Below the pieces are notes generated by a model that saw nothing but the letters and a program-made list of their open reading frames with translations, was not told the DNA's origin and made no database searches. A DNA stretch of 64,000 nucleotides from Alkalispirochaeta sp. GTDB taxonomy: Bacteria; Spirochaetota; Spirochaetia; DSM-27196; Alkalispirochaetaceae. How positions within the stretch are numbered: position 1 is the stretch's first letter; every line of letters begins with the position of its first letter. The position numbers were made by a program, and so were the translations under genes. The stretch spans positions 3,552,001 through 3,616,000 of the forward strand of contig OZ271854.1 of the NCBI GenBank assembly GCA_965601925.1, read 5' to 3'. Shown here one piece after another: positions 745 through 17,585 of the stretch.

Positions 745-770
745 ATTATCTCCCCTGATAAATCATTGTA

Positions 771-786
771 ACATAACGCGTTATGA
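771..786 (-). repeat. Collapsed attC remnant (two core sites back to back)
   Basis: ACATAAC-GC-GTTATGA; same ACATAAC core as the attC sites at 6307, 11460 and 12651, 27 bp upstream of the GNAT start. Confidence 0.45.
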
Positions 787-1009
787 ATGATTGAAGGTCG
801 CGGCACGGCAACTCCATTTAGTGTCTTCCGCTTTGTCGCCGTAACAGCGGCAGATGTTTATCACACCGGTGTAATGCATCCGCATCGCCTATGCTCCAAC
901 GGGAACGTGACGACGAGAGGGCGACCGGTGAATCGTTCATCGCCTTCGGTTTCGTGTTCCACCCCCGGTCGAGTCGGAGGGCGTGCGTAACCTTGAAACG
1001 CTTTTGGGA

Positions 1010-1975: not shown

Positions 1976-2027
1976 ATTTTCAACCTCCGTTCGGTTCTGC
2001 AAAGATGGTGCAAGCGTAGCACCGAAT

Positions 2028-2046
2028 CATGACATCTCCTGTCGTG
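2028..2046. promoter_or_regulatory. Palindromic operator between divergent hydrolase and WYL regulator
   Basis: CATGACA-TCTCC-TGTCGTG imperfect inverted repeat; TATACT -10 at 2055-2060 just ahead of the WYL ATG. Confidence 0.55.
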
Positions 2047-2068
2047 TATTCCGATATACTCTCTCAAT

Positions 2069-3043
2069 ATGCGTGCCGATCGATTAGTTGCATTGGTTCT
2101 GCTCTTGCGCCGTCGTGGACGACTCTCCGCGTCCGAGCTCGCCGACGAGCTGGAGGTATCCACCCGGACGGTGCTGCGTGACATCGAAGCGCTGTCCATG
2201 GCAGGTGTTCCGGTGTACGCCGAGCGCGGCCGGCACGGCGGGTTCGAGTTACTACCCAGTTTCCGATCCGAACTCACGGGACTGAACCACGAGGAGTCAC
2301 TCGCCCTGCTGGCGGCCGGCTCGCGACGGGGCGCGCAGGTGTTCGGTCTCGGTTCGGCCCTCGCCTCGGCGATGCTAAAAGTGTTCGACGCGCTCCCCAA
2401 AGACGTCCGTGACACTGCCGTCGTTGCGGCGGAACGAATCCTCATCGACCCGGAGATCGATTTGTTCTCGCGCCGGATGGCGCCCGAAGAAGTACCGGAA
2501 TCGATCCTAACTCCAGTTCGACACGCTGTGTTGAATGGACACAAGCTGCGCATCCACTACGCCGCTTTGAACCGACCGGCGCAGTGGCGCGTCGTCGACC
2601 CGCTCGGCCTGGTCGCACTACGTGAGCAGGTGTACCTGTTGGCCACGAGGTCGGGAGCGGATCGAACCTACCGGCTCTCCAGGATGACGGACGCCGAGGA
2701 GCTCGCCGAACCGGCAGAGCGGCCGGAGCGCGTCGATCTTGAGCGGGTGTGGCAGGAACGAAGCACCACCTTCCTCGCCGGCGGCGACCAAGTCACGGTG
2801 CTGGTCCGCGTGAATCCGAAGCACCGAGAAACCTTGGTCAAAACCGCTTTGGCCGTCTTTGCCGAAGAGGTGGGGGGGGATGGGTGGCGCGAACTCAAAG
2901 CGACCTTTCAGGATGCGCGACACGCCGAGTGGGCGCTGTGGCACCTCGCGATGGACGCGGAGGTACTGACGCCGGATTGGTTGCGCACCTCTCTCCGGGA
3001 CCGCGCAGCGGCCGTAGCCTCACGGTATGGTTCAGAACGCTGA
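2069..3043 (+). CDS. HTH-WYL(-WCX) transcriptional regulator, YafY-like
   Basis: wHTH 'SELADELEVSTRTVLRDIEAL...GRHGG', WYL 'R.VDPLGLV....VYLLA......RTYRLSRM', C-terminal 'EVLTP.WLR'. Confidence 0.92.
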   Translation: MRADRLVALVLLLRRRGRLSASELADELEVSTRTVLRDIEALSMAGVPVYAERGRHGGFELLPSFRSELTGLNHEESLALLAAGSRRGAQVFGLGSALASAMLKVFDALPKDVRDTAVVAAERILIDPEIDLFSRRMAPEEVPESILTPVRHAVLNGHKLRIHYAALNRPAQWRVVDPLGLVALREQVYLLATRSGADRTYRLSRMTDAEELAEPAERPERVDLERVWQERSTTFLAGGDQVTVLVRVNPKHRETLVKTALAVFAEEVGGDGWRELKATFQDARHAEWALWHLAMDAEVLTPDWLRTSLRDRAAAVASRYGSER

Positions 3044-3093
3044 CCGCCTCGGGTGTTATGGGGGACGATGAACACAATGTTATATGATATTGA

Positions 3094-4439
3094 TGTCCGT
3101 TCCTGGGATATGGGTAACAGATTATTCTCGAGACATCGGTAACACCTTGGGTCGCTCAAGGGGGTGCGCATACCCATCGGGCACCCGGGAAATGATGTCT
3201 TCCACGACGTTACGTTCTACATCATACCGCCCAATCTGATAGAAGCAGAAGTAGATACCAAAGATGCCGGTGTCTACCTCTTCAAGGCCGACGTAGTGTT
3301 CCTTCAGCGTCGAGGAGAGAAAGAACTGCCGGTTCAACACACGTATCGTCCCGGCGCGACTGACCCGAGGGACCAGGTAGTGCGCGGGATAGTCATAGGT
3401 CGTGAAGCGCTTCGGCATACTCCATGGTGATCGCCGATAAAGATCCGCGGGACGAACCATATCAATATCTTCGTGGGGACGAATCTGATTGAACTCGTCC
3501 CGAAAAGCATCGAAGCGTCGTTGTTGTGCGGCCATACTCGCCTCCGGTGGTATGGCGGTCTCTCGTTTCAGCGTCGAGTGCGTGTGTTCGTGAATACCGT
3601 TCTGCTGGGGACGGCCCGGCTCGATGAGTTCGGGATAGATGCCCAGGGAGATGAACCACACCGACAGTTGCGACAAGCGTGCCAGGGCACTGGAGACGAA
3701 TGGAGCTCCGTTGTCGGTACGAATGCGTTCTGGAAGGCCATAGGTGCGAAACAGATGGGTGAAGAACGCCTTCGATCGTTCGAGTGAGACTGCCTGATGG
3801 CTCTCGACGCCGAGGATGTAGCGCGAGAAGAGGTTACTGACGGTGAGAGGAAAGCAGTAGATGCCGTTCTTCAGGCGGAACTGTCCTTTGTAGTCGGCGG
3901 CCCATACGTCATTCGGTATCTCAGGACGGTGCTTGGGACAGCCTAGATGCCTCCGTTTCCAGCTGCGACTCGTGGGTTTCACCAGTCCGGCTTTCGAGAG
4001 TATCCGCGCGGCGGTTGAGATCGCCGGCAGATGCCAGTCGGGATGCGCCCGTTCGATGAGAGCTAAGAGCTTGCGTGGACCCCATCGTGGATGAGCGGTG
4101 CGAAGACGAATCACTTCGTCGCGTACGGTGTCGCTCATCGCCCATGGACAGCTATGGGGCGTTCGGGATTCCTCTCGCAGCCCATCCTCTCCATGGTGCT
4201 CCCAGCGATGAACCCATTTGTATGCGGTCTTCCGGGATATCGTGAATCGCTGGGCTAACTCGGTGATCGTATAGATATTCAACCGGTAGTCCCGGATGAA
4301 GTTCTTCCGTTGCTCGTGCACGGTAACTCTTTTCCATGACATGAGCTCTCCTCCCCGTAGAGAGTGTTACCCATGTCCTGAGAATTCGTGTTACCGATGT
4401 TGCGAGAATTTCTTGTTACCTATGTCTCCGAACGGTTCA
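3094..4439 (-). mobile_element. IS481-family insertion sequence
   Basis: 26-bp imperfect terminal IRs (TGTCCGTTCCTGGGATATGGGTAACA vs TGAACCGTTCGGAGACATAGGTAACA) with reiterated TGTTACCnATGT subterminal motifs; no flanking duplication seen. Confidence 0.8.
3122..4342 (-). CDS. IS481-family DDE transposase
   Basis: N-terminal HTH (ISRKTAYKWV), WGPRKL, integrase core WAADYKG / RTDNG / PGRPQQNG.HE. Confidence 0.9.
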   Translation of the reverse strand: MSWKRVTVHEQRKNFIRDYRLNIYTITELAQRFTISRKTAYKWVHRWEHHGEDGLREESRTPHSCPWAMSDTVRDEVIRLRTAHPRWGPRKLLALIERAHPDWHLPAISTAARILSKAGLVKPTSRSWKRRHLGCPKHRPEIPNDVWAADYKGQFRLKNGIYCFPLTVSNLFSRYILGVESHQAVSLERSKAFFTHLFRTYGLPERIRTDNGAPFVSSALARLSQLSVWFISLGIYPELIEPGRPQQNGIHEHTHSTLKRETAIPPEASMAAQQRRFDAFRDEFNQIRPHEDIDMVRPADLYRRSPWSMPKRFTTYDYPAHYLVPRVSRAGTIRVLNRQFFLSSTLKEHYVGLEEVDTGIFGIYFCFYQIGRYDVERNVVEDIISRVPDGYAHPLERPKVLPMSRE

Positions 4440-4456
4440 TTCCGTCTGGTTGTGGC

Positions 4457-4747
4457 TTACGCCGAAACCGGCCGAATTGCCTCGATTTCTTTGTGATGGA
4501 CGCTTTCTTCTTCTTCCAAGTCGAAGTCATCCTGCAATCCTAACCAAAAGCGTGGCGATACACCGAAGTACTTTCCTAATCGCAAGGCCGTCTCAGCCGT
4601 TACTCGTCGCTGGGCTCGGATGATCTCAGAAATACGAGTTTGTGACAATCCTGTATCTTTTGCCAAGCGATAGGCCGTTATGCCCATCGGAATCAGAAAC
4701 TCTTCTTTGAGCACTTCACCGGGATGGATGTTTCTTAACTTCTCCAT
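4457..4747 (-). CDS. higA: HigA-family antitoxin (HTH-XRE)
   Basis: IHPGEVLKEEFL...RVTAETALRLGKYFG.SPRFWLGLQ; ATG at 4747 with AGGAG RBS. Confidence 0.92.
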   Translation of the reverse strand: MEKLRNIHPGEVLKEEFLIPMGITAYRLAKDTGLSQTRISEIIRAQRRVTAETALRLGKYFGVSPRFWLGLQDDFDLEEEESVHHKEIEAIRPVSA

Positions 4748-4757
4748 ACTGTTCTCC

Positions 4758-5039
4758 TTAATGGTAGTCGACGATTTCGGCATCGTATACATCGCCATCT
4801 ACCCATCGAAAACAAATGCGCCACTGATCGTTGATCCGAATGCTGTACTGTCCGCTTCGATTTCCCTTTAGTTTCTCCAAGCGATTATTCGGCGGTACGC
4901 GCAATTCAGCGATGTTTGTCGCGTTATTCATCATTCTCAGTTTCCGCCGAGCTGTATTCTGGATATCTGGTGGTAATCGCGGTGTTCGATTTCCTTCCCA
5001 GATATCACGTGTCGCTTGCGATGCAAAACTTCGGATCAC
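4758..5039 (-). CDS. higB: HigB-family (RelE-like) toxin
   Basis: MIRSF...LRVPPNNRLEKLKG.RSGQYSIRINDQWRICFRW...EIVDYH; toxin-before-antitoxin order. Confidence 0.92.
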   Translation of the reverse strand: MIRSFASQATRDIWEGNRTPRLPPDIQNTARRKLRMMNNATNIAELRVPPNNRLEKLKGNRSGQYSIRINDQWRICFRWVDGDVYDAEIVDYH

Positions 5040-5074: not shown

Positions 5075-5172
5075 TCAGAAGTATATCTACTTGTTGTGTT
5101 TCGATAAGAGTTTTACCGAGTGGCTGAAGAACGAAGCCCAACCACCCGGTAATAACTAATGGTAGAAGCCTT

Positions 5173-5439
5173 TTACGAGGCTTTCTCTTGGTGGCGCGTT
5201 AGCTTACCGGCGCGCGCCGCCACTTTGAAAATGCATCCATCACATTGACCCTTCGTACTCTTGCACCGGCAGGCTGCACATACGTCGTAGAGGTCATAGT
5301 CTTCGATTGCATCGAGGATGAGGCGATTCAGTGTCCTTGTCATTGGCTCATTTTTGAACCACGCCATTCGTCTGAGAGCGAAGACCGCATCGCGGCTTAA
5401 TTTCGGGACATACGTACCAGCGCCAATCTTTGTGTGCAT
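5173..5439 (-). CDS. Small hypothetical protein, RHH-like N-terminus and CxxCxC...CxxC tail
   Basis: 88 aa from GAGGTG-RBS ATG; YVPKLSRDAVFALRRMAW....PMTRTL; CAACRC.....CDGC; ORF conserved in the second copy. Confidence 0.7.
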   Translation of the reverse strand: MHTKIGAGTYVPKLSRDAVFALRRMAWFKNEPMTRTLNRLILDAIEDYDLYDVCAACRCKSTKGQCDGCIFKVAARAGKLTRHQEKAS

Positions 5440-5508
5440 TTCCTGCACCTCAGTGAATGATGTATGCGGGAAAGCCATGCTTGGTCCCGCACCGGAGGTG
5501 CGCGCCGC

Positions 5509-5588
5509 TCCTCGTTTTCATGTGTCAAGGTCGAACGAAGTGAGCCCGAAGGGCTTGGCCTTTACACATGGAAAAGAGGACGTACAAT
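5509..5588. promoter_or_regulatory. Long imperfect hairpin containing promoter hexamers
   Basis: Arms TCCTCGTTTTCATGTGTCAAGGTCGA and TTGGCCTTTACACATGGAAAAGAGGA, apical GCCC-GAA-GGGC; TTTACA-N16-TACAAT on + strand, TTGACA on - strand. Confidence 0.6.
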
Positions 5589-5632
5589 GAGAAGACTGCG
5601 GGAGCAGGTTAGGTTGAGGCAGTTTTGGAGCG

Positions 5633-5953
5633 TTACCGGAGGTTTCTTCGGAGCAATATGTCTTCGATGTTTCGACGCCCGTCAATCACTGCGAGAATCA
5701 ATATCCGATCGGATTCTTGCGTATACAACACGCGCCATGGCGCGACGATGATTTCTCGATATTTCGTGATGTTCTGTTGTTCGAGTTCCGGAATGATCCG
5801 TCCGGTTTCCGGAAATTCTGATAATCGCGATACTTCGGAATCAATTTTTTCTGCGATGTTCTTCGCAATCGTCGCCGACGAATGATTAATGATCCAATCA
5901 ATGATTTCTCGGAAGTCTATCGCCGCGCTCGCGGCCCATGTTATTTGTGTCAT
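5633..5953 (-). CDS. RelE/ParE-family toxin
   Basis: I.W...A..D..EI.DWI...L.EFPETGRIIPE......REIIVAPWRVLY......ILAVIDGRR; downstream of a Phd antitoxin. Confidence 0.88.
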   Translation of the reverse strand: MTQITWAASAAIDFREIIDWIINHSSATIAKNIAEKIDSEVSRLSEFPETGRIIPELEQQNITKYREIIVAPWRVLYTQESDRILILAVIDGRRNIEDILLRRNLR

Positions 5954-5959
5954 CGAAAG

Positions 5960-6232
5960 TCAATCAGGAATACGACCATAGATGTCGTCCATGACCGACT
6001 TATGATCGACGGTTCGGTTGTCGGCGATATCTTTTTCACTTTGTGAGATGAGCTTCATCAGTCCAAGGGCATCTTTCATTTCTTGATACGTTTCGGTATC
6101 TAACAATACTGCCCGTGCTTCGCCATTTTGAGTGATTAATATCGGATTATGAGTGTCATTGACCTGCCGCAGCATCTCTGCAGCGTTGCTCTTCACATAC
6201 GAAATAGGGCGAATATCTGAATGAAGATTCAT
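5960..6232 (-). CDS. Phd/YefM-family antitoxin
   Basis: DIRPISYVKSNAAEML......PILITQNGEARAVLLD..TY. Confidence 0.9.
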   Translation of the reverse strand: MNLHSDIRPISYVKSNAAEMLRQVNDTHNPILITQNGEARAVLLDTETYQEMKDALGLMKLISQSEKDIADNRTVDHKSVMDDIYGRIPD

Positions 6233-6248
6233 AACCAGCCTCCCGGTT

Positions 6249-6282
6249 CAAATAACGTACTTTATTTGGTCTGTTTACGCAA
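6249..6282 (-). promoter_or_regulatory. TA promoter and operator
   Basis: TTGCGT-N17-TACGTT with perfect IR CAAATAA-N6-TTATTTG over the -10; identical in copy 2 (~12593-12626). Confidence 0.6.
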
Positions 6283-6306
6283 TTCGTTTGGGATAACGCA
6301 GAAGCA

Positions 6307-6427
6307 ACATAACACCGAGCCGACCTGCGGGCTGCGGCCCGGAGCCGTAGGCGGAGGGATTAGCGCGGCGGTTGCGTACGCGAGCGCCGTGCCAAAGCAG
6401 ATTGACTGGTCCAGCGTTATGTTATGT
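6307..6427 (-). repeat. attC site (intact, 121 bp)
   Basis: Minus strand: R'' ACATAAC, 5-bp spacer, L'' GCTGGACC (one extra base) ... L' GGTCGGC, 5-bp spacer, R' GTTATGT; homologous to the site at 12651. Confidence 0.88.
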
Positions 6428-6576
6428 TGATTCCGATTTTCTATTATAACTCTATTTCTTTATGCTATGTTGCATAGTGTTGTGGAGCTGCCATGTCATT
6501 ATTCGAGAACTATCAGACCTCAATATTCATAGTATATAATCGAAAAAGATGATCATTTGTCGCAGGATATCTAATA

Positions 6577-7083
6577 GTGAGACAAGATTCGCGAATCGAT
6601 TCGCATGACAATCGGCCGTCGCCGGAACGAAGTCGGAACATGGCCTCAGTTCCGAGCAAGAATACTTCGATCGAACTAAAGGTCCGAAGTGGCTTATTCG
6701 CTCGCGGATTCCGATATCGAGTTAATGATTCTCGTCTCCCTGGAAGACCCGATTTAGTCCTCGCCAAGTACAAGGCAGTCGTGTTTGTAAACGGTTGCTT
6801 TTGGCATCTGCATGGTTGTAAACGTTCTGCCCTTCCAAAAACACGAACTGATTGGTGGAGTCACAAGTTACGCCGAAATAAAGAGAGAGACGAGGCAGCA
6901 ATCTCGCAGTTACTGCAGAAAGGTTGGCGGGTCTTGACCATATGGGAGTGCAGTATACGAACAGGGAAGACAAAGGAGAAATCGACGATGAAACAAGTGT
7001 TGGATTTAGCATCAGTCTTTCTACATTCGGATGAGCAGCGAATGGAGATCCCTTTGCTACCTCAGTACATTGCTGGTAAGTGA
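6577..7083 (+). CDS. vsr: Very short patch repair endonuclease
   Basis: RSRNMAS...KNT..E, LPGRPD, VFVNGCFWH.H.C, N.ERD, GWRVLTIWEC. Confidence 0.93.
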   Translation: MRQDSRIDSHDNRPSPERSRNMASVPSKNTSIELKVRSGLFARGFRYRVNDSRLPGRPDLVLAKYKAVVFVNGCFWHLHGCKRSALPKTRTDWWSHKLRRNKERDEAAISQLLQKGWRVLTIWECSIRTGKTKEKSTMKQVLDLASVFLHSDEQRMEIPLLPQYIAGK

Positions 7084-7086
7084 GTT

Positions 7087-9237
7087 ATGGAAGAAAACAA
7101 AAATTTGGAAGTATCAAATCAGGTTAAGTTCAGTATGCACCCGAGGGTCTTTGCTGCCTTGGGAGCAGACCTGGTGACAAACGACGTCGTCGCCGCCATA
7201 GAGGTTGTGAAGAACTCATATGACGCTTTTGCCAAAAATGTCTGGGTCACCTTCGGTACGGACGAAACAATGGGCGACTACCTCGAGATAAAAGATGACG
7301 GCTACGGAATGTCCAAGGCTACAATCGAGAACGTATGGTTTGTGGTAGCTACGCCGTTTAAGAAAGAAAACCCGATTGTGGTAGACGGAAAGAAAACGCG
7401 GCGGGTGTCCGGAGAAAAAGGGTTAGGACGATTATCTGTCGCACGGCTTGGTCACAAGCTGCAAATACTTACACAGGAACTCAACGGGCCTTGCTGGGAG
7501 ATATCAGTCAATTGGTCTGCTCTCGAGAACAACTTAGAGTCAGACGGTGACACTGCGAGCTATTACCGTTATCGGGAAGATTCGCCTTTCAAGGTTTCAG
7601 GCACCATTGTTCGTGTATACGAGCTCAATAATCGTTGGAACAAAGAGCGTGTTGCGGAGTTAGAAGATAACCTGGCAAGAATGATATCGCCTTTTGCAGA
7701 AGTTGGCGATTTCAATATTTTCTTGTCGAACCCATGGAACCGGAATGCGGGGGAGGTGCGAGTAGAGTCTCCCGAGTTTCTTTCGAGCCCGAAGTACAAG
7801 TTATCCGGCAAAGCAGACGAGTCAGGTAGTGTCACGGCAAGTTACCGGTACGCTCCGCTAAACAACAGGAAAAAGAGGTCCGCAGAACTACGCTTGAGCT
7901 GGGAGCAAATCTACGATTCGATGCAGGATGCAGAGAAACACAAATATGAAAGCAGTGCCGCGCACTGCGGTGGTTTTGATTTTGAAATTCGTGCATGGGA
8001 TGTTGGCGCAGAGGACACCGCGGCAATCGCCACACGTTTTGATTTTCGTAAGAGCCAGGTGAGAAAGGCGATAAAGGCGCACAAAGGTATATCCGTATAC
8101 CGCGACGGGATACTTGTTCTGCCGAAGTCTGATAACGCGCGAGACTGGCTGGGATTAGATCTGCGGCGAGTTAGTCGTGTAGGCACCCGGCTTAGCACCA
8201 GCCAAATCGTGGGGTATGTTTCTATCTCTGCTGAAGACAACCCCGAGGTAAACGATACGAGTGATCGAGAAAGACTTGTATCAGGACGTGCAGTTGGGGA
8301 ATTTGAAGAGATTCTCAAAGCAGCGATTGGTCTACTTGAGAATGAGCGCGCCAACGACAAAGAAACTATGAATCCGAGTGAGCCCATGACAGATCTTTTT
8401 GGCGGTTTGTCTGCCGAAGAGGTGCTCGCCGAAGCCATCGCGTTGGTAAATGAAGGCGCTGAAGCGGCCGATGTTATTCCCTTACTACAGTCTTTCAATA
8501 GCAACTTGACCGCAACTCAACAAACGATACGAGAAAGATTCGTTTTTTATAGTCGCTTGGCTACGGTCGGTACAATTGCCCACATGTTGGTTCACGAAAT
8601 CAGGAACAGGACCACTGCGTTGGGTGTGTTTTTGTCTTCTGTACGTGATCGATTCGGACCATTTCATGATGAAGAAGTGTTAGAAGAGTACCGAATGGCG
8701 GTCGCCTCAATAAACTCGCTCGAACGCCTCGCTGATACATTCTCTCCGCTTGCAAATCGCGGTTTTCGACGCGGAAAGCGAACATGCATAGTAGAAGATC
8801 AAATCCGAGACAGTCTCACTCTTCAGCAAACAGAGATTGAGGCGAAGAGGGTCGAATGTCAGGTGCCGGCTACAGACACCAAAGTCACAATCGATCCTGG
8901 AGAGTTGGATAGCGTACTTTTGAATCTTGTTAGTAATGCTCTTTACTGGCTAAGCACTGACAAGTCAAAGGGTCGTCAACTGAAGTTTAGTCTGACGGAT
9001 ATTGATGACGGCAAAAGAGTACGGGTTTGGGTGCATGACAACGGGCCCGGGATTGAGCGCGATGATGTGGAAAAAGTGTTCTGGCCCGGCATCACGCGAA
9101 AGCCGGGCGGCATCGGAATGGGACTTACTGTTGCATCAGAAGTCGTTGCCGCACATGGCGGACATATGACGATCAAGACACCAGGCACACTCGGTGGAGC
9201 GTCTTTCGCATTTGATCTTCCATTAGCAAAGGATTGA
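7087..9237 (+). CDS. MORC/GHKL-type ATPase fused to histidine kinase
   Basis: N-terminal GHKL motifs EVVKNSYDA, DDGYGM, GEKGLGRLS; S5-like YRDG..V; C-terminal H-box LVHEIRN, N-box NLVSNA, G1 DNGPGI, G2 GIGMGL; no TM segments. Confidence 0.88.
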   Translation: MEENKNLEVSNQVKFSMHPRVFAALGADLVTNDVVAAIEVVKNSYDAFAKNVWVTFGTDETMGDYLEIKDDGYGMSKATIENVWFVVATPFKKENPIVVDGKKTRRVSGEKGLGRLSVARLGHKLQILTQELNGPCWEISVNWSALENNLESDGDTASYYRYREDSPFKVSGTIVRVYELNNRWNKERVAELEDNLARMISPFAEVGDFNIFLSNPWNRNAGEVRVESPEFLSSPKYKLSGKADESGSVTASYRYAPLNNRKKRSAELRLSWEQIYDSMQDAEKHKYESSAAHCGGFDFEIRAWDVGAEDTAAIATRFDFRKSQVRKAIKAHKGISVYRDGILVLPKSDNARDWLGLDLRRVSRVGTRLSTSQIVGYVSISAEDNPEVNDTSDRERLVSGRAVGEFEEILKAAIGLLENERANDKETMNPSEPMTDLFGGLSAEEVLAEAIALVNEGAEAADVIPLLQSFNSNLTATQQTIRERFVFYSRLATVGTIAHMLVHEIRNRTTALGVFLSSVRDRFGPFHDEEVLEEYRMAVASINSLERLADTFSPLANRGFRRGKRTCIVEDQIRDSLTLQQTEIEAKRVECQVPATDTKVTIDPGELDSVLLNLVSNALYWLSTDKSKGRQLKFSLTDIDDGKRVRVWVHDNGPGIERDDVEKVFWPGITRKPGGIGMGLTVASEVVAAHGGHMTIKTPGTLGGASFAFDLPLAKD

Positions 9238-9240
9238 AAT

Positions 9241-10371
9241 ATGGCAGAACTTGACCACAGAAGGGTTTTGTTTATCGATGACCAACCAGAAGTAGTTCGG
9301 CCCGCGAGGTTAGCTGCTGAACGGAAAGGAGCGATATGCAAGACTACTTCATTCCCGGACGCCGAATCGGAAATAGGAAACTTTGAGCCCGACGTTGTTG
9401 TGGTTGATCTTTTCAATGGTGAACCCCCAGAGGGGGAACAGGCAGGACAAAACACTATCGAGTTTGTGTGGGATCACCGGTTCTGTCCGATCATTGTGTA
9501 CTCCGCTTTCCCGGATTATGCGGATGATGTTCCGAAAAATCATCCTTTTGTCAAACTTGTCAGAAAGGGAGCAAAGAGTCCTGATGAAGTATGTCAGGCG
9601 CTCAGCGATTACGAACGCCACATCGAATCGATTCACGCCGCCGACATAGACACACGAAAGGCGTTTGCTTTGGCAATTCGTGACGTGGCACCATACGCAT
9701 TCCGTCACTTTGAAACCGAAGAAGCAAGAAATGATGCAATCATTCGCGGCGGAAGACGACGCTTGGCGGCCATGATGGACGAAATGCCTCTTGACAGAGA
9801 ACAGCTCCAAAGCTGGGAGCAATACCTTTGTCCACCTATACGTTCGAGTCTTCAGTTGGGTGACGTGTTGGTCAAGCAAGGTCACAATGACCTTCACGCT
9901 TCAAGTTATCGGATTGTTCTTTCACCGTCGTGTGATCTTGCCACCGACAACGGGCGCACCCCAAAAGTCAAGAATGCTCTCGTTGCTCGCTGTATCGGAT
10001 TTCCGGAAGCATTGGAAAAAATGGAAGTCAGCAAAAAGCCCAAGAAGAACAGGGAGAAGCTCAATAAAATTCTGTCGCAAGGCTACACTGCGGAGCTGCT
10101 TCCCTTACCTGAACTGCAAGGCCGAATTCCACATATGGTCGCCGATCTAAAAGACCTGGAGCTCATAAAACTGACCGATGGTGGAGCGCTTGAGAAGCCA
10201 TATCGACGTATAGCGTCCGTAGATAGTCCATTTCGTGAGCTGGTATCTTGGGCCTACATACAAACGGCCGGACGTCCCGGACTACCCAGCAGAGACACAA
10301 TAAGGTGGACGGAGTCGATCCAAACTTGGATTGACAGTACTACCTCGGACAGTATTGATGAAGGCGATTGA
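9241..10371 (+). CDS. Response-regulator receiver domain fused to uncharacterised C-terminal domain
   Basis: VLFIDD, VVVVDL (phosphoacceptor Asp), PIIVYSA, VRKG; C-terminal LGDVL...IVLSPSCDL. Confidence 0.8.
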   Translation: MAELDHRRVLFIDDQPEVVRPARLAAERKGAICKTTSFPDAESEIGNFEPDVVVVDLFNGEPPEGEQAGQNTIEFVWDHRFCPIIVYSAFPDYADDVPKNHPFVKLVRKGAKSPDEVCQALSDYERHIESIHAADIDTRKAFALAIRDVAPYAFRHFETEEARNDAIIRGGRRRLAAMMDEMPLDREQLQSWEQYLCPPIRSSLQLGDVLVKQGHNDLHASSYRIVLSPSCDLATDNGRTPKVKNALVARCIGFPEALEKMEVSKKPKKNREKLNKILSQGYTAELLPLPELQGRIPHMVADLKDLELIKLTDGGALEKPYRRIASVDSPFRELVSWAYIQTAGRPGLPSRDTIRWTESIQTWIDSTTSDSIDEGD

Positions 10372-11413
10372 TTTTTTTTGCGGGGCTGGAGGTCTCTCGA
10401 GAGGACTTATCGATGCCGGCATCGACGTTGTGGCAGGAATCGATCTCGACGCATCGTGTCGAACTACATACGAACACAATAATCACAAATCAGCGTTTAT
10501 TGAGGCCGACGTCTCAGATTTAGATGAACACTCTCTCTGTAACTATCTAAAAGGAGCTACCTCTAAGGAGTTGCTTTTCGCAGGGTGCGCGCCTTGCCAG
10601 CCTTTCAGTAAGCATACCCGCGGTCCGAGAAAGCGAAAGGATGCAAGGATTCTAAGCCACTTCGGGAGACTGATCGCAGCTTACAAGCCCGGCTTCGTTT
10701 TGATTGAGAATGTACCCGGGATTGCCAAGGTTGGGGGCTACAGTACGTTTAAACGTTTCCTCCAGACACTCGGTACCAATGGCTATCGATATGCATTTGA
10801 AGTACTGGACGCAAAATGGTACGGAGTTCCGCAGAATCGTCGTCGTTTGGTGCTTATTGCGACCTTGGGAATGCCTGCTTCCCTTCCAAGACCTCGGTAC
10901 GGCAAAAATCTGCGGCGCTTTCGCACGGTTCGTGATGCCATTTCGCACTATCCAGCGATAAAGGCCGGTAAGACTGATGAGTCTTTTCCTAATCATGTTG
11001 CCGCGTCGGTCTCTGCTAAGAATCTGGAACGACTCCAAAATACTCCCCACGACGGTGGAGATCGTCGTTCTTGGCCAACACATCTTGAGTTAGCTTGCCA
11101 CTCAGGTGAGCACACAGGACATACGGATGTCTATGGAAGGATGTACTGGCATCGCCCAGCTCCTGCGATCACCGGGCGTTGCAACAGCCTTTCAAATGGG
11201 AGATACGGGCATCCCGAACAAGACAGAGCGATATCTCTACGGGAAGCTGCTGCAATTCAGACCTTTCCTGACCGCTATGTCTTTTTCGGATCTAACAAGA
11301 GTGTTGCGCAGCAAATAGGAAACGCAGTTCCAGTTAGAATGGCAGAGGAAATTGGGCGACACATTCTGAGGTTAGCCACAAAGACACAAGTAGCGGAAAC
11401 TGCAGAATTTTAG
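10358..11413 (+). CDS. DNA (cytosine-5)-methyltransferase
   Basis: Motif I DFFCGAGG, IV APCQPFS, VI ENV, VIII PQNRRR, IX R.ISLREAA.IQTFP, X QIGNAVP; ATG overlaps the upstream gene. Confidence 0.95.
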   Translation: MKAIDFFCGAGGLSRGLIDAGIDVVAGIDLDASCRTTYEHNNHKSAFIEADVSDLDEHSLCNYLKGATSKELLFAGCAPCQPFSKHTRGPRKRKDARILSHFGRLIAAYKPGFVLIENVPGIAKVGGYSTFKRFLQTLGTNGYRYAFEVLDAKWYGVPQNRRRLVLIATLGMPASLPRPRYGKNLRRFRTVRDAISHYPAIKAGKTDESFPNHVAASVSAKNLERLQNTPHDGGDRRSWPTHLELACHSGEHTGHTDVYGRMYWHRPAPAITGRCNSLSNGRYGHPEQDRAISLREAAAIQTFPDRYVFFGSNKSVAQQIGNAVPVRMAEEIGRHILRLATKTQVAETAEF

Positions 11414-11459
11414 AACAGAATGCGGCCGGTAGATTGGAAGGATAGCATGTCCTCATGTG

Positions 11460-11566
11460 ACATAACGCTGAGCGGCGAAGCCGTCCCGAAGCAGAAGGCT
11501 TGGCGCATGTCTTTCGTGAAGCAATGTGTGTGAAACGGTTTTAACGGCTCTAACGTTGTACTAGTT
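11460..11566 (-). repeat. Degenerate attC site
   Basis: Aligns by eye along its length to the attC at 12651 (GCTGAGC..AAGCCG.CCCG.AGCAGA..GGCTTGGCGC...) but lacks the 5-bp spacer, and the GTTATGT box has decayed to ACTAGTT. Confidence 0.7.
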
Positions 11567-11667
11567 TCGGTTTTGTTTTACGTGTCTATCTCGTTCATTG
11601 ATGCCTTTTTACCGAGTGGCTGAAGCACGAAGCCCAACCACCCGGTAGTACTTATTGGAATGAAGCC

Positions 11668-11934
11668 TTACGAGGCTTTTTCTTGGTGGCACGTTTGCTT
11701 GCTGGCGCGTGCCGCCACTTTGAAAATGCATCCATCACATTGACCCTTCGGACTTCTGCACCGGCAGGCGGCACAGACATCATAGAGATCAAAGTCCTTT
11801 ATTGCGTCGAGGATGAGGCGATCCAATGTCTTTGTCATTGGTTCATTCTTGAACCACGCCATTCGCCTAAGCGCAAAGACCGCATCGCGGCTCACCTTTG
11901 GGACATACGTACCGGCAGATTTTGTTGTGTGCAT
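11668..11934 (-). CDS. Second copy of RHH-like Cys-rich small protein
   Basis: 88 aa, same length as 5173-5439 with the same Cys pattern. Confidence 0.65.
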   Translation of the reverse strand: MHTTKSAGTYVPKVSRDAVFALRRMAWFKNEPMTKTLDRLILDAIKDFDLYDVCAACRCRSPKGQCDGCIFKVAARASKQTCHQEKAS

Positions 11935-12301
11935 CTTGTGCACCTCCATACATGATGTATGCGGGAAAGCCGTGCTTGGTCCCGCACCGGAGGTTTCTTC
12001 GGAGCAATATGTCTTCGATATTTCGCCGTCCATCAATCACGGCGAGAATCAGTACTCGATCAGATTCTTGCGTATAAAACACGCGCCATGGCGCGACGAT
12101 GATTTCTCGATATTTCGTGATGTTCTGTTGTTCGAGTTCCGGAATGATCCGTCCGGTATCCGGGAATTCTGACAATCGCGATACTTCAGAATCAATTTTT
12201 TCTGAGATGTTCTTCGCAATCATCGCCGACGAATGGTTGATGATCCAATCAATGATTTCTCGGAAGTCCGTCGCCGCGCTCGCGGCCCATGTCACAATCA
12301 T
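11867..12301 (-). pseudogene. RelE/ParE toxin copy with stop codon lost (C-terminal read-through)
   Basis: Near-identical to 5633-5953 up to ...LRRNLR, then continues 39 aa because of a deletion at ACCGGAGGT (11986-11994). Confidence 0.75.
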
Positions 12302-12304
12302 AAA

Positions 12305-12576
12305 TCAATCAGAAATGCGACCATAGATATCATCCATGACCGACTTATGATCGACAGTTCGGTTGTCTGAAATATCCTTTTCACTTTGCGAGATGAGTTT
12401 CATCAGTCCAAGGGCATCTTTCATTTCCTGATACGTTTCGTGTCTAACAATACTGCCCGTGCTTCGCCATTTTGAGTGATTAATATCGGATTATGAGTGT
12501 CATTGACTTGCCGCAACATTTCCGCCGCGTTGCTCTTCACATACGAAATAGGACGAATATCTGAACGAAGATTCAT
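12305..12576 (-). pseudogene. Frameshifted Phd/YefM antitoxin
   Basis: 272 bp vs 273 bp in copy 1; GTTTCGTGTCT vs GTTTCGGTATCT near 12440. Confidence 0.85.
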
Positions 12577-12650
12577 AACCAGCCTCCCGGTTCAAATAAC
12601 GTACTTTATTTGGTCTGTTTACGCAATTCGTTTGGGGTAACGCAGAAGCA

Positions 12651-12764
12651 ACATAACACCGAGCTGAGCTGCAAAGCCGGCCCGGAGCAGAGCGGAGGGC
12701 TTGGCGCGGGCCTTGCGTACCGCAAGGCGCGTGCCAAAGGCTTTGACTGCTCCAGCGTTATGTT
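12651..12764 (-). repeat. attC site interrupted in its R'' box by IS1182 (remainder at 14427-14433)
   Basis: ACATAAC-ACCGA-GCTGAGC...GCTCCAGC-GTTAT-GTT|IS|GTTATGT. Confidence 0.88.
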
Positions 12765-14426
12765 GAGACTGTCGCACAACGCAGTCGTGGTCTGCTAGCA
12801 TCGTGCCTGGGAGGAGCCAATGCCGAACTACCGAGGAAACGAGGGGCAGGATCTCATGATTCCGGTGTGCCTGGATGATCAGCTGGTGCCGGGTACCATC
12901 GAACACGCCATCACCTGGATCGTCGACCACGAGATCGATACGTCGGTGTTCGATGCAGCCTATCACAACGACCACGGCGGTCGCCCGGCCTGTGATCCGG
13001 CCGCGCTGGTGAAGATCATCTTGTTCGCCTACTCCCGGGGCATCCTCTCCTCACGGAAGATCGAGGAAGCCTGCCGGACCAACATCGTGTTCATGGCCCT
13101 CAGTGGTGATATCCGGCCCGACCACGCCACGATCGCCCGGTTCGTTACCGGCCATCCCGCGGCGGTTCGTCGTGTGTTCCGGGATGTGCTGATGATTGCG
13201 GCACAGGGCGATCTGATCGGTGGGGACGTGTTTGCACTGGACGGCTGCAAGATCAGCTCGAACGCCGCCCGAGAGCACGCGGGGACGCGACGGGAACTGG
13301 AGAAGAAGAGAGCGAAGCTTGAAGCACGTCTTGAGGCGATACTGCTCACTCATCGCGGCGCAGATGAGGCATGCACCTCCGATAACGACGATCAACAGGG
13401 CAGACCCGGTTCAGGGACAGCTGATCGCTACCGGGCGCAGATCGACCGCATCAAAGGATTCCTCGACGCCCATCCACCCCGCACCGGCACCAGCGGACGC
13501 GAGGTGAAATCCAACATCACCGACAATCAGAGTGCCACACTGAAAACCGGGAGTGGCTACATCCAGGGCTATAACGCGCTGGCGATGGTGGATGCGAAGC
13601 ACCAGATCGTGCTACACGCTGAACCGGTCGGTCAGATCCATGAGGCACCGCTGCTGCCACGGATGGTGCGCCGGTCACTGCATACACTGCGCAGGTTCGC
13701 ACATCCCCAGGCCTGCACACCGACCATCCTCGCTGATACCAACTATTTCACCGAATCCAACGCCCGGTTCCTGATCGACTCTGATCTCGACGGCTATATC
13801 CCCGACCATCAGTTCCGGAATCGGGACATGCGATTCGCGGATCGGAGTCGATCGCGCCGGGCGGCACACCGGCGCTTCACCCAAGCCGATTTCCTCTACC
13901 AGAGCGACACCGACAGCTATCGTTGTCCGGCCGGCAAGACGTTGCGACGGCGCACCCGGGAGGTGGTTGCCGGGCGTCGTGGTACGCGCTATGAAGCGAA
14001 GCAATCAGACTGCAGTGCATGCGATCTCACCTCCCGCTGTCTGATCCGTACTGCAACCCGGCGTAGACTCTTCCGCGGTGACGGTCCAGCCGGGACCTAT
14101 GCCCAACAGATGCGTGATCGGATCGACACCGAACGGGGTCGACGGATGTACGCCAGACGCATGGGTATCGTGGAGCCGGTCTTTGCGAACATCACCGCCA
14201 CCAAGGGCATGCGACGATTCACGCTCCGAGGCCGGGCGAAGGTCCGCATTCAATGGCTCCTGTACACGCTGGTGCACAACATCGAAAAGATCGCCACCAC
14301 CGGGCTGATTCATCGGTTAGTCGGAGTTTGATCCGGGTGGGTGGCGGGTTGAAGAATGCCTGGCCACGATCACTGGCCGTGAACTACTCGCTCCGCGTGG
14401 GTTCCCACGCGTTGTGCGACAGCCTC
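12765..14426 (+). mobile_element. IS1182-family insertion sequence (1662 bp)
   Basis: 18-bp terminal IRs GAGACTGTCGCACAACGC / GCGTTGTGCGACAGCCTC (1 mismatch), flanked by a GTT duplication. Confidence 0.92.
12820..14331 (+). CDS. IS1182-family transposase
   Basis: GRPA.DP..LVKIILFAYS.G..SSRKIE, PDH.TI.RF, ALDG.KI..NA, GYN, ADTNY, Y.CP.G..L / C..C....C zinc module, Y.RR...VEPVF. Confidence 0.93.
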   Translation: MPNYRGNEGQDLMIPVCLDDQLVPGTIEHAITWIVDHEIDTSVFDAAYHNDHGGRPACDPAALVKIILFAYSRGILSSRKIEEACRTNIVFMALSGDIRPDHATIARFVTGHPAAVRRVFRDVLMIAAQGDLIGGDVFALDGCKISSNAAREHAGTRRELEKKRAKLEARLEAILLTHRGADEACTSDNDDQQGRPGSGTADRYRAQIDRIKGFLDAHPPRTGTSGREVKSNITDNQSATLKTGSGYIQGYNALAMVDAKHQIVLHAEPVGQIHEAPLLPRMVRRSLHTLRRFAHPQACTPTILADTNYFTESNARFLIDSDLDGYIPDHQFRNRDMRFADRSRSRRAAHRRFTQADFLYQSDTDSYRCPAGKTLRRRTREVVAGRRGTRYEAKQSDCSACDLTSRCLIRTATRRRLFRGDGPAGTYAQQMRDRIDTERGRRMYARRMGIVEPVFANITATKGMRRFTLRGRAKVRIQWLLYTLVHNIEKIATTGLIHRLVGV

Positions 14427-14427
14427 G

Positions 14428-16044
14428 TTATGTGGTTTGCTCCGGGATTTGTGCGACTGTTTTATTTTTCGACACCGTTCGAAACAACCATCCATTACAC
14501 CCAAAGTCATTTTCAATAACGAGCGCGTATAACTCATTGCCCGCTTCACTTAGCGCGACGGACAGCTCAATCGGTCGGTCTGTCAAAATGGTACTGTTTT
14601 CCAATGACAACTTGAGGGTGATTCCAGAAGCGATATTTTTTGTGTGTCCACTGTAACGCTGTGTTGAATACGCCATTTCAAAAATCATGCTTTCCGGGCC
14701 CTGACTAATGTCGAGCTTTGGAGCTCCTTCATTGTTGCAGATCCATGGTTTGCAATAGTCATGTACTTGAGCTGGAAAAAAAAACTTCGAGCCATGTTCA
14801 AGGAAGAAGTTGGATCGCCTTGCCGCTGCTTTCCGGTGCAAAGAAACTGCTTCTAATTCAGCATCGATCGAAGACTGCAAAGCGTATTGTGCATTTCCAA
14901 CATTCTGATGAGTATTTTCCTCCGATTGCGCCCACGATATTAGCTCTCGCGCTTCTTCTTCAAAACCGTTGTTGATGAACAAAAAAGCCAGATTAGCGGC
15001 TGATAGTGTTTCGCCAAGTTTTTCCGCGCGTCTATACTGCTCAACGGATGAGAAAACGTGCCCTAGTTCTTTATAAGTAACTCCAAGATTGTTGTGTGCC
15101 ATATTGTTTTCAGGATCAAGAGTCAATAATTCCTGATAATAATGCAGCTGCACCAAAAGCGATTTTGACTTATACGCTAAATCAAATAGATTAGCTCGCG
15201 ATTTACCACTATAGGCAAGGCTGACCTCACGCGCTAAACTTGAACGATTTGAATCGATATCGTTCAAAATCTCGGCTATTTTGCTGAACAGTAGACCGAT
15301 AGCATCATGTGACGTCAGAGATTGAACGCGGTCAGAGAGATACTGGGTCGCTTTTTCGCTCCCTTCGATCTCACATATGATATCGGCACTAATTGTCGCT
15401 GCTTGCGCCTTCTGCATGTCCGATGTACCGTGATCATAAGAATACTGCAGTGAAGAGAGTGCTTCCGTTTGCCGCCCCCGTTTTAGTAAGAGCCAACCTA
15501 ACAAACGTTTTCCTTTACTCAATAGATCGTCAAACTCTTTTGCGCTTTCTACAGCTGATTCCATTCGAGTCAAAGATGAATCGTGACCGAAATAAACACG
15601 CCAAAATGCGTAGCTCAGTTTGATGTCCACACGTTCGCGATTTCCAGAAAGGCTCTCGATGGTTTTGGAATACAGCTCTTCGGCCTCAGAAGTTTGGGAT
15701 TCTTCTAGCAAAGCAAAAAAACGAGCTTCAAGCTCTGATGGAGACACATATTCCTTGCCCGGCTTTGAATCCTCTACGGAATCTACTTTGGACGACTCTT
15801 GATCCGCGATCGAATTGTCCTTTTTGTGAGGAATGCTATTTGGTGTGTAACCGAAGGTGCTTAAAGCTACAGCCGTTTGGTTCTCTCCTGAACCTTTTGA
15901 GTAGTCGACTGATTGAATACGGTCTATTACAGAAGCAATATTTCTTCTAAAAATCAGAATGAAAAATGTTAAAAATCCAATAATTAGCAGAGCAATTATC
16001 AAAGCTTGAAACTCGACTATCATGTCCAACAATTGCTCCTCCAT
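14428..16044 (-). CDS. Membrane-anchored TPR-repeat protein (first cassette)
   Basis: N-terminal hydrophobic helix; TPR 'LDPENNMAHNNLGVTYKELG'; AT-rich; stop TAA lies within the attC R'' box. Confidence 0.75.
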   Translation of the reverse strand: MEEQLLDMIVEFQALIIALLIIGFLTFFILIFRRNIASVIDRIQSVDYSKGSGENQTAVALSTFGYTPNSIPHKKDNSIADQESSKVDSVEDSKPGKEYVSPSELEARFFALLEESQTSEAEELYSKTIESLSGNRERVDIKLSYAFWRVYFGHDSSLTRMESAVESAKEFDDLLSKGKRLLGWLLLKRGRQTEALSSLQYSYDHGTSDMQKAQAATISADIICEIEGSEKATQYLSDRVQSLTSHDAIGLLFSKIAEILNDIDSNRSSLAREVSLAYSGKSRANLFDLAYKSKSLLVQLHYYQELLTLDPENNMAHNNLGVTYKELGHVFSSVEQYRRAEKLGETLSAANLAFLFINNGFEEEARELISWAQSEENTHQNVGNAQYALQSSIDAELEAVSLHRKAAARRSNFFLEHGSKFFFPAQVHDYCKPWICNNEGAPKLDISQGPESMIFEMAYSTQRYSGHTKNIASGITLKLSLENSTILTDRPIELSVALSEAGNELYALVIENDFGCNGWLFRTVSKNKTVAQIPEQTT

Positions 16045-16209
16045 CGTTTAATCGAAATATTTTAAAAAAAGACGATATTCCTATTTTATTGTATTAGGCC
16101 CAAAGCCGCAAACCTTACCTTATCGATGAGCATAACTCTCCTGATGGAGGTTTGTAGCGAATCACGGCTCTGGCTTCAAACCATATAACATATTCCCCTC
16201 CACACTTTT

Positions 16210-16232
16210 CCACATAACAACCCAATGGCAAC
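16210..16232 (-). other. attI recombination site (core GTTATGT at 16218-16212)
   Basis: Minus-strand GTTATGTGG is the exact complement of the first cassette's R'' end CCACATAAC (14435-14427); lies ~100 bp upstream of intI. Confidence 0.7.
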
Positions 16233-16316
16233 TCGTCTGTAATCGCCGAAAAGCACGGAACCTCACACATCGATGTACTTCTATTGAAAAGGAGTAAACA
16301 CCGGCATGGAGGTGCT

Positions 16317-17585
16317 ATGACTGCAAACGACATTGAGCATTTCAGAGAATACATTACACAAATAGACACGATTTCTCCGCGCGCGCGTCCGCACTATGTC
16401 AGGTGGGTAAAAGAGTATGCGCAGTTTCGTGCCAAGCATTCCGATGAGATTGCGGACGCACAGATGTTGCCGGAGTTCAAAGCTGCACTCTACCGGACGA
16501 GGCGGGAGTGGCAGGTGAATCAGGCAGGCGACGCCGTGGCGATGTTCCTGAGGTTTTTGGACGCAACGCCAGCATCGGTAGAAACAGCGTCACGACAGGC
16601 CCGATCGTGGGAAGAACTACAGGTTCTCCTCATTCACACACTTCGACTCAAGGGCCGCTCACGGGCGACGGAACGGACCTACCTACAATGGTTCCGCACC
16701 TTTCGCTCATACTGCAACTCGCAGCGGCCCCCGACTCTCGATGATTCCCACGTTCGTTCCTTTCTTACGCATCTTGCTATCGACAGGTCCGTAGCGGTTA
16801 GTACTCAACGCCAAGCATTCAACGCTATACTATTCCTGTATCGTAACGTGCTGGAACGAGACATCAATTCGCTTCGCTTCGCAGTGAGTGCCCGTGCAAA
16901 GAAGCGCCTTCCCGTGGTGTTATCGCGCGAGGAGATCACATCAATATGCGGCTACATGAAGCCTCCGTACCTTCTCATGGTACGCCTCATCTATGGCAGT
17001 GGGTTGCGGCTTTCTGAATGTTTGGCGTTGCGTGTAAAGGATCTCAATACGAACGATGGAACAATCATCGTGCGTTCCGGTAAGGGCAACAAGGATCGAC
17101 TAACCGTTCTCCCGAAGTCACTCATTCCGGAGTTGAGAGAGCACGGTCGTTCGGTACGCGCGTTGTTTGATCAAGACCGTGCTCTTGGCAACCCCGGGGT
17201 TCCGTTGCCCGGCGCTTTGGCAACGAAGTATCCGAACGCCGGGACAGAGTGGGGGTGGTTCTGGCTCTTTCCGTCGCAACGTCTCTCCGTCGACAAGCGA
17301 ACGGGCATGTCGGGTCGATATCACGCCTATCCATCGAGTTTACAGCGCGCTTTTCATCGTGCCGTCGCCGCGGCGGGAGTCGCGAAACAGGCGTCGATCC
17401 ACACGCTCCGCCACAGTTTTGCAACGCATTTGATCGAGGCGGGATACGATATCCGTACCGTCCAGGAGTTGCTCGGCCACAACGACGTGAGTACAACCAT
17501 GATTTATACGCACGTGGCCACTCGTAACAATCTGGGTGTTGTTAGCCCTATGGATCGTCTTCGTCGCGTGGACGATCTGCACTGA
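16317..17585 (+). CDS. intI: Integron integrase
   Basis: Tyr-recombinase YGSGLRLSE, GKGNKDR, HTLRHSFATH, LLGH..V.TTMIYTH plus the IntI-specific insertion ALATKYPNAGTEWGWFWLFPS; GGAGGTG RBS. Confidence 0.96.
   Translation: MTANDIEHFREYITQIDTISPRARPHYVRWVKEYAQFRAKHSDEIADAQMLPEFKAALYRTRREWQVNQAGDAVAMFLRFLDATPASVETASRQARSWEELQVLLIHTLRLKGRSRATERTYLQWFRTFRSYCNSQRPPTLDDSHVRSFLTHLAIDRSVAVSTQRQAFNAILFLYRNVLERDINSLRFAVSARAKKRLPVVLSREEITSICGYMKPPYLLMVRLIYGSGLRLSECLALRVKDLNTNDGTIIVRSGKGNKDRLTVLPKSLIPELREHGRSVRALFDQDRALGNPGVPLPGALATKYPNAGTEWGWFWLFPSQRLSVDKRTGMSGRYHAYPSSLQRAFHRAVAAAGVAKQASIHTLRHSFATHLIEAGYDIRTVQELLGHNDVSTTMIYTHVATRNNLGVVSPMDRLRRVDDLH

Follow-up and report, generated by a model that had tools for sequence, protein, structure and literature searches.

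What does a kinase–receiver pair do inside a DNA methylase operon that carries no recognizable restriction enzyme? The question is raised by four open reading frames (ORFs) on the + strand, at 6577–11413 of the 64,000-nucleotide stretch of Alkalispirochaeta sp. contig OZ271854.1 (assembly GCA_965601925.1, positions 3,552,001 to 3,616,000) that we analyzed and refer to as the window. As placed earlier in a reading made without database searches (hereafter, the sequence-only reading), they are vsr and genes for a GHKL ATPase–histidine kinase fusion, a receiver protein, and a C5 cytosine methyltransferase (MTase); the ORFs, their domains, and the tight packing are all confirmed, with 3-nt gaps at the first two junctions and a 14-nt overlap between the last two genes. 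The receiver protein ends in a tail that is predicted to have a MazF/PemK/CcdB/ToxN-type toxin fold, and this tail is the candidate output of the circuit. The features of the response protein are:

9241..9780, + strand: receiver domain (residues ~7–129) and helical linker (125–180) of the 376-aa response protein, from model and conservation
9406–9408, + strand: receiver phospho-acceptor D56, from conservation
9844..10281, + strand: C-terminal output domain (residues ~202–347), predicted MazF/PemK/CcdB/ToxN fold, from a model with pLDDT 90.2
9931–9936, + strand: invariant C231–D232 of the tail, from conservation

The whole receiver ORF (9241–10371, 376 aa) has no match in Pfam or NCBIfam. Since a fold search with the complete protein (model pLDDT 88.9) gave receiver domains only, residues 183–364 were folded separately, from an alignment of 72 rows (pLDDT 90.2). 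VIA-align comparison of this tail with 48,161 solved chains places MazF, Kid, CcdB, CptN, ToxN, or AbiQ-type toxins at all ranks from 1 to 15 (Z 9.6–4.3), twelve of them with Z of at least 6.9; the first unrelated fold has Z 3.7. The tail aligns with MazF-mt3 at Z 9.6 (rmsd 3.0, 103 aligned) and with CcdB at Z 9.1 (rmsd 2.4, 95 of 95 aligned). With Foldseek, all 30 matches listed from the PDB are of the MazF or Kid family (best E 7.8e-4), and 11 of the first 14 matches listed from the viral library are PemK-like, MazF, or endoribonuclease. The likeness to MazF/PemK/Kid/CcdB and ToxN/AbiQ/CptN is that of the predicted fold of residues ~202–347; the tail differs from MazF-type toxins by the lack of a profile match, several insertions, no antitoxin gene, the fusion to a receiver, and the apparent replacement of the catalytic Arg and Thr. 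The family-fixed residues are C231, D232, S326, D328, S329, P330, F331, R332, and E333 (SxDSPFRE, 326–333), and R345. As for a cognate antitoxin gene, no extra ORF recurs across homologous loci. The homodimer prediction for the tail, with a score of 0.24 against a mark of 0.42, is uninformative. In ESM Atlas, clusters of 118–199 aa, annotated as 'hypothetical protein' only, resemble the tail at 0.89–0.91 and are possible stand-alone relatives of it, to be taken as leads only.

Homologous loci were collected from the best 80 of 178 metagenome matches, one viral contig, and one genome locus, yielding 71 non-redundant loci, of which 21 are fully flanked (both flanks >900 bp). The kinase gene lies directly upstream of the receiver gene wherever the upstream side is visible (60/60 loci). 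Among the 65 loci that show the downstream side, the methylase gene directly follows the receiver gene in 60; four of the exceptions have a methylase at another place in the locus, and L046 shows none. Vsr accompanies the module in 17 of the 21 fully flanked loci. The receiver protein has 420 relatives among 8,000 candidates scored, and with its profile 321 representatives out of 1.84 billion are matched at E up to 1e-30; the weaker profile matches probably include plain receiver domains. The relatives come from Planctomycetes, Nitrospina, Blastocatellia, Caldilineaceae, Desulfobacterium, Spirochaetales, and Bacteroidetes, and the spread is sporadic: the full-length receiver gene is found in 0/60 related genomes, and the tail profile matches 1/400 other genomes of the phylum. 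A single-sequence scan of genome contigs yields one true locus only. Matches to PADLOC defence models (E up to 1e-10; a partial PglW match in L066 is discounted) lie near 11/21 fully flanked loci, a count for which no background rate was computed. On the viral contig (L083, 2686–10198), a gene for the large subunit of a phage terminase precedes the kinase–receiver–methylase module by ~1.3 kb, and a Shedu-like gene is seen further along. In L150 (G149:C218), an HhH-GPD glycosylase gene comes after a divergent homologue (24–26% identical), and the contig stops too early for a methylase to be seen.

The neighbours of the homologous loci are heterogeneous. Pfam was applied to 140 of the 163 flanking ORFs within 2.6 kb, NCBIfam to the remaining 23 (of which 13 were scanned with Pfam too), and PADLOC to 150/152 ORFs of the fully flanked loci. 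No restriction-type nuclease match is seen in 12 of these 21 loci. Of the other nine, seven owe the match to an opposite-strand gene, a fusion protein, or a component of a type I, III, or IIG system, and two (L043 and L044) to a stand-alone same-strand HNH gene; outside the 21, L034 has an adjoining same-strand HNH gene, and L059 has an MvaI/BcnI nuclease after the operon together with a second methylase. Unannotated flanking ORFs could hide nucleases, but none recurs across independent loci. The comparison supports the lack of a restriction enzyme as a trait of the family, not a local loss. The sequence-only reading had allowed that homologous operons might always include a restriction enzyme; the 12 loci speak otherwise, and loss in this copy only is rejected, since no restriction enzyme is conserved across homologous loci. 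The cognate restriction endonuclease of a type II restriction–modification (R-M) system was not found; the PADLOC REase_II match covers only the ATPase of the kinase, residues 22–148. The description of the system as nuclease-free holds for restriction endonucleases; it does not hold strictly, since Vsr is itself a nuclease and the tail fold is typical of ribonuclease toxins.

The remaining features of the operon are:

6428..6576, + strand: AT-rich leader, 32% GC, TATAAT at 6535, consensus −35 absent
6577..7083, + strand: Vsr very-short-patch T:G mismatch endonuclease, 168 aa (PF03852, E 1e-28; TIGR00632 above cut-off)
7087..9237, + strand: soluble GHKL ATPase and histidine kinase fusion, 716 aa (Pfam, NCBIfam)
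8593–8595, + strand: kinase His H503, from the HEIRN box
10358..11413, + strand: C5 cytosine DNA methyltransferase, 351 aa from ATG (PF00145, E 1.5e-56; TIGR00675; PADLOC MTase_II, E 2e-89)
10595–10597, + strand: MTase catalytic Cys, from its motif

The kinase consists of a GHKL ATPase (residues ~15–215), a middle domain, for which we infer an S5-like fold, and a histidine kinase; Pfam assigns HATPase_c_3 to residues 35–151 and HATPase_c to 603–714. A PDB sequence search with the N-terminal 423 residues gives no match. Residues 15–213 match the model of BbrUII/HgiDII restriction enzymes (NCBIfam NF050001) at E 6e-22, below its cut-off, and in the PADLOC scan of the operon, which recognizes Vsr and the methylase, the kinase is matched only in its ATPase part. 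Residues E39, N43, D70, K111, H503, E504, and N617 are invariant in 44/44 full-length homologues, and position 507 (H+4) is Asn or Thr in 42/44. Thr or Asn at H+4 has been tied to phosphatase activity, and the PF19191 kinases described below have no such residue (10.64898/2026.02.27.708494). There is no transmembrane-like stretch, in agreement with the proposed solubility of the kinase.

In the receiver, D56 is invariant in 136/136 diverse sequences, and D14, D56, S/T88, and K109 are kept in 96–100% of them; the domain superimposes on solved receiver domains at Z ~15. The relay from the kinase to the receiver looks intact. The MTase motifs PC, ENV, and QxRxR are present in 59/59 homologues, with C89 invariant in all, so that the three residues named for mutation in the sequence-only reading (kinase His, receiver Asp, MTase Cys) all stand. 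Conserved positions of Vsr are kept across the 28 sequences compared. Palindrome avoidance, analyzed genome-wide and in 219 coding sequences, is uninformative as to the MTase target; GTCGAC, a guessed target, is not depleted (69 seen vs. 77.5 expected). The upstream region is AT-rich, as claimed, with 32% GC at 6428–6576 compared to 49% in the operon and 60% in the genome; the leader is the probable promoter of the operon, while a strict promoter scan finds 0 sigma-70 sites in it. Sequence comparison establishes the gene set and its order, the intact ATPase, kinase, receiver, and methylase motifs, and the lack of a conserved restriction enzyme and of a separate antitoxin gene.

Several known systems resemble the module. 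The HEF_HK (PF19191) and Response_reg_2 (PF19192) families share with it a soluble kinase composed of HATPase_c_3, a His-box, and HATPase_c, next to a receiver, a C5 methylase, and, often, Vsr. These two-component-like elements were predicted in 2021, with function untested and control of R-M systems proposed (Bellieny-Rabelo et al., 2021, PMC8011034); the available text of that paper does not identify the output domain of Response_reg_2, and it reports frequent HNH neighbours. Among 301 genomes of another phylum we found six Response_reg_2 loci, all with the order methylase–kinase–receiver, whereas the order here is kinase–receiver–methylase. The module proteins are shorter (716 and 376 aa vs. 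947–1001 and 533–616 aa in the six loci), and the module kinase has the HEIRN box with Asn/Thr at H+4, while PF19191 does not have that residue. The module kinase has no match to PF19191, while the control L144 matches at E 9e-27 in the same library; PF19192 is matched by 0/120 receiver homologues, none in G000, and 68/120 match PF00072 weakly. Membership in PF19191/PF19192 is rejected, as neither profile matched and the control pair did. The tails do align, however: hhalign of the module tail with those of five of the six PF19192 proteins (the sixth does not have the filter motif) gives a probability of 76% and E 2.2e-5 over 140 columns, a moderate degree of support, and the motifs G-x-[IL], PxCD, and RxG are common to both. 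The module and PF19191/PF19192 are sister families, and they probably have the output fold in common.

Ambrosia (AbrRABCD), an anti-phage system that needs its receiver Asp (10.1101/2025.09.30.679545), similarly combines a methylase, a HATPase histidine kinase, and a receiver in a single operon. It has an N6-adenine methylase, a winged-helix receiver, proposed to be a transcription factor in the same preprint, an HNH nuclease, and an XRE repressor, whereas the module has a C5 methylase, Vsr, and the predicted MazF-fold tail, a beta-rich barrel in the model and not a winged helix, and its cassette holds no HNH or XRE ORF. In Detocs (DtcABC), His-to-Asp transfer is needed to activate a toxic domain fused to the receiver, with abortive infection as the outcome (10.1101/2023.01.24.525353). 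Detocs relies on a TPR sensor, a separate buffer receiver (DtcB), and mostly PNP effectors, whereas the module has a GHKL ATPase sensor, no buffer receiver, and a methylase within the unit; neither 'methyl' nor MazF-type effectors occur in the Detocs text available (10.1101/2023.01.24.525353). Detocs is the best functional model for the module. Membership in either system is rejected: of Ambrosia, the cassette lacks the N6-adenine methylase, the XRE repressor, the HNH nuclease, and the winged-helix output, and of Detocs, the TPR-sensor kinase, DtcB, and the PNP effector. Mobile R-M-like operons that combine a GHKL ATPase with Vsr and a C5 methylase have been described as paraMORC (Iyer et al., 2008, PMC2292703), and both the GHKL motifs and the R-M-like context are present here. 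A BbrUII-type R-M locus carries an equal MTase–Vsr–GHKL triad (identity 41% for MTase, 51% for Vsr, 24% for GHKL); compared to BbrUII/HgiDII, the module has a histidine kinase in place of the C-terminal nuclease, and its output goes via the receiver. The grouping, earlier presented as noted but without a known mechanism, is therefore less unexplored than was thought: a description of the sister family dates from 2021 (PMC8011034), and Detocs and Ambrosia have been tested. Our literature search found no paper on a methylase operon whose receiver is joined to a MazF/PemK/CcdB domain, with subscription papers mostly outside its scope and with Ambrosia and Detocs supplements that could list the module; 'MazF' occurs 0 times in the Ambrosia preprint as available (10.1101/2025.09.30.679545). 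Methylase-linked two-component defence is itself already known, and the newly identified element of this module is the predicted MazF/CcdB-fold output.

The best reading, to which we give an even chance on the strength of sequence comparison and structure prediction, is a methylation-gated, phosphorylation-switched MazF-fold toxin that provides abortive defence and addiction. The 5-methylcytosine (5mC) set by the methylase would be the self mark, and Vsr would repair its deamination, limiting the mutational cost. The GHKL clamp would read the unmethylated target site, as its BbrUII/HgiDII counterpart is presumed to do, and the phosphate signal would pass from H503 to D56; Asn or Thr at H+4 may make the kinase also a phosphatase that keeps the toxin off. 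The receiver and the helical linker would stand in for an antitoxin until phosphorylation of the receiver frees the toxin domain and the infected cell is arrested. Abortive infection would be the outcome, together with addiction in cells that lose the methylase. The setting of this copy in an integron between toxin–antitoxin cassettes is supportive context. A wider version is tentative, with the balance against it: here a signalling circuit would replace the restriction enzyme, a MORC-like clamp would read 5mC, and a His-to-Asp relay would activate an antitoxin-free MazF/CcdB-fold toxin with a new Cys–Asp active site, the same output being present in hundreds of Response_reg_2 loci, including those of E. 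coli, Salmonella, Acinetobacter, and Vibrio.

Several observations weigh against the toxin reading. Identities of the tail to MazF-fold toxins are just 3–17%; profile–profile comparison with 11 PemK sequences gives a probability of 0.4%, the tail profile finds nothing below E 0.25 among PDB sequences, and the receiver protein has no match to PF02452 (MazF/PemK). The Z of 8–9.6 exceeds only modestly the best-hit background stated for the tool (7–8). Arg24 and Thr47 are the essential catalytic residues of SaMazF (PMC4041440), and the corresponding positions hold S/A/D and C/V/E in the tail family, as mapped by eye from a PemK alignment onto column frequencies and not by residue-level structural superposition; judged from the sequences, the tail seems to lack both catalytic residues. 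R224, two positions beyond the Arg site, is present in 94/136 sequences. One fold serves both a gyrase poison and an RNase: CcdB and Kid have it in common, with different targets and hardly detectable sequence similarity (PMC3460896); therefore, the fold suggests a toxin and does not fix its chemistry. An RNase with a non-canonical active site comes first, just short of an even chance; a CcdB-like protein-binding poison is a tentative second, and some other activity is unlikely. At the level of the system, 72,556 plasmids and 50,697 phage records contain no match to the module, 10/21 fully flanked loci have no accepted PADLOC match (again without a background control for the neighbourhood count), likeness to BbrUII-type enzymes is confined to the ATPase domain, and Ambrosia methylation gave phage DNA no protection, with no host toxicity seen in the part of the study available (10.1101/2025.09.30.679545).

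The lack of protection by Ambrosia methylation is the main caution on the proposed sensing of unmethylated DNA, and it favours the strongest, though rather unlikely, alternative, which keeps the same toxin output and makes the GHKL-kinase a guard that senses phage attack on methylation or restriction (a DNA mimic, a methylase inhibitor, depletion of S-adenosylmethionine, or DNA ends). The homologues in L012, L026, L041, L063, and L064, which directly adjoin type I, III, IIG, or Hma systems, would fit such a role; however, many copies have no other R-M system alongside, the module has its own C5 methylase in 64/65 loci with a visible downstream side, and Vsr is usual (17/21).

Slightly less probable still, and distinctly unlikely, is a non-toxic regulator, in which the two-component pair would control the expression or activity of an orphan methylase and the tail would be a nucleic-acid-binding or dimerization module. 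It agrees with the non-conserved MazF catalytic positions, with the absence of both an antitoxin and a buffer-receiver gene, and with the R-M control (PMC8011034) and transcription-factor role (10.1101/2025.09.30.679545) proposed for the related systems. However, there is no helix-turn-helix output, all significant structural matches are toxins, and there is no conserved nuclease to control; the invariant polar C231, D232, E333, and R345, partly common to the distant PF19192 family, resemble an active or binding site.

It is quite improbable that a MazF scaffold has become a new DNA-cutting enzyme in the tail, brought to unmethylated sites by the GHKL-kinase as part of a phosphorelay-gated restriction enzyme. 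Such an activity would complete the methylase–Vsr–GHKL triad as in BbrUII-type systems, and the conserved tail residues do differ from those of the RNase MazF; yet no PD-(D/E)XK, HNH, or other DNase fold is seen among the structural matches listed, and the solved members of the fold act on RNA or gyrase (PMC3460896). An incomplete system, with the four genes as a remnant or accessory and the cognate nuclease lost or acting in trans, is very improbable: the HNH neighbours of L034, L043, and L044, the MvaI/BcnI nuclease after L059, and the HNH genes frequent near the sister family (PMC8011034) speak for it, and against it stand the 12/21 fully flanked loci with no restriction-type nuclease match, the position of some loci, such as L031, among housekeeping genes, the strong conservation of all motifs, and the lack of space for a further gene between the att sites that bound this cassette.

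The integron setting is of lesser interest than the output fold. Its features are:

16284..17585, + strand: integron integrase (TIGR02249, 401 bits; cut-off 265)
16212..16218, − strand: probable attI core and array start, from GTTATGT just upstream of intI
11460..11561, − strand: degenerate attC at the cassette start (E 1.6e-7 to the attC at 12651)
6307..6422, − strand: attC closing the cassette (crossover core 6307–6313, inner core 6416–6422)

Given the position and strand of the integrase, the array reads on the − strand, hence the operon is antisense to it, as had been claimed. From attI, the array comprises a cassette with a TPR protein, an insertion sequence (IS) with the intact attC 12651–12763, a Phd/ParE cassette, the degenerate attC, the module, the attC 6307–6422, and a second Phd/ParE cassette; the module is the third cassette, spanning ~6313–11465. 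With 5.15 kb and four genes it is large for an array, and it has no room for another gene; defence systems in integron cassettes tend to be small (10.1101/2024.07.02.601686). The bounding cores named in the sequence-only reading stand at ACATAAC 11460 and need correction at GTTATGT 6421, where the true core is 6416–6422 and 6421–6427 is an overlapping repeat. ACATAAC occurs at 771, 6307, 11460, 12651, and 16212, compared to ~0.3 expected per 17.6 kb; the GTTATGT/ACATAAC pair marks other junctions too, and is a good array marker but not independent evidence for this cassette.

The claim of a single integron cassette is borne out by the integrase in the locus and the att cores at both ends; it is qualified by the state of the sites. 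The left attC has about ten homologues in the genome and pairing cores, with a modest fold (z −1.43). The right attC has lost 5 nt beside the core, its outer core is altered, and its fold does not surpass those of shuffled sequences (z 0.30), while the intact attC 12651–12763 has z −5.9; therefore, the module may no longer excise alone. The module entered as an integron cassette, and the degenerate attC and the flanking toxin–antitoxin cassettes suggest that it is now locked in. No excision junction is seen in contigs from four runs of one sample, which is not evidence of absence; a joint of 6426 to 16196 is explained by a second array with similar attC and attI copies. Integron carriage as a property of the system is refuted: an attC-like hairpin is found beside 0/21 fully flanked homologues by a heuristic that recovers two attC sites of the window, hence the carriage is incidental. 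Near the homologous loci, five recombinases were found, all below the integron-integrase cut-off.

Other elements of the array may be recorded here. The IS (window 12764–14426, with DUF772 and DDE_Tnp_1_6 transposase), which we take to be IS1182-like, is flanked by a GTTATGT direct repeat; its five identical copies (genome C1 2185134, 2188362, 2193961, 3564764, and 3738604) all start at the outer edge of attC, and it looks like an attC-targeting element. IS1111-type elements and group II introns are known to target attC. The Phd/ParE cassette, with a small downstream ORF (101–122 aa, no Pfam match), has three full copies (84–95% identical) and one partial, at window 5111–6313 and 11607–12657, the pair flanking the module, and at C1 2198468–2199669 and 2186853–2187216. 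Further arrays with the same attC family are at C1 ~2.16–2.20 Mb and 3.73–3.74 Mb, and an attI-like copy is at C1 2201282–2201424, with no integron integrase match to go with it. The first cassette (window 14428–16044, − strand) codes for a protein of 538 aa in which a hydrophobic stretch at the N-terminus is combined with TPR repeats; it has no PADLOC match and is a possible uncharacterized defence gene. The distal array (286–5039) contains HigBA (4457–5039), an IS481-like element (3122–4342), a WYL regulator accompanied by an alpha/beta hydrolase, and, following an isolated ACATAAC core at 771, a GNAT gene; within 286–5039 we detected no intact attC.

The methylase-linked kinase–receiver modules predicted in 2021 had no known output, and the specific fold predicted for the tail now names a candidate that can be tested. 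If the toxin reading is true, a MazF-family toxin would be under phosphorylation control in place of an antitoxin, the methylation state of DNA would be linked directly to abortive infection, and a bacterial MORC-like kinase would have its first mechanism.

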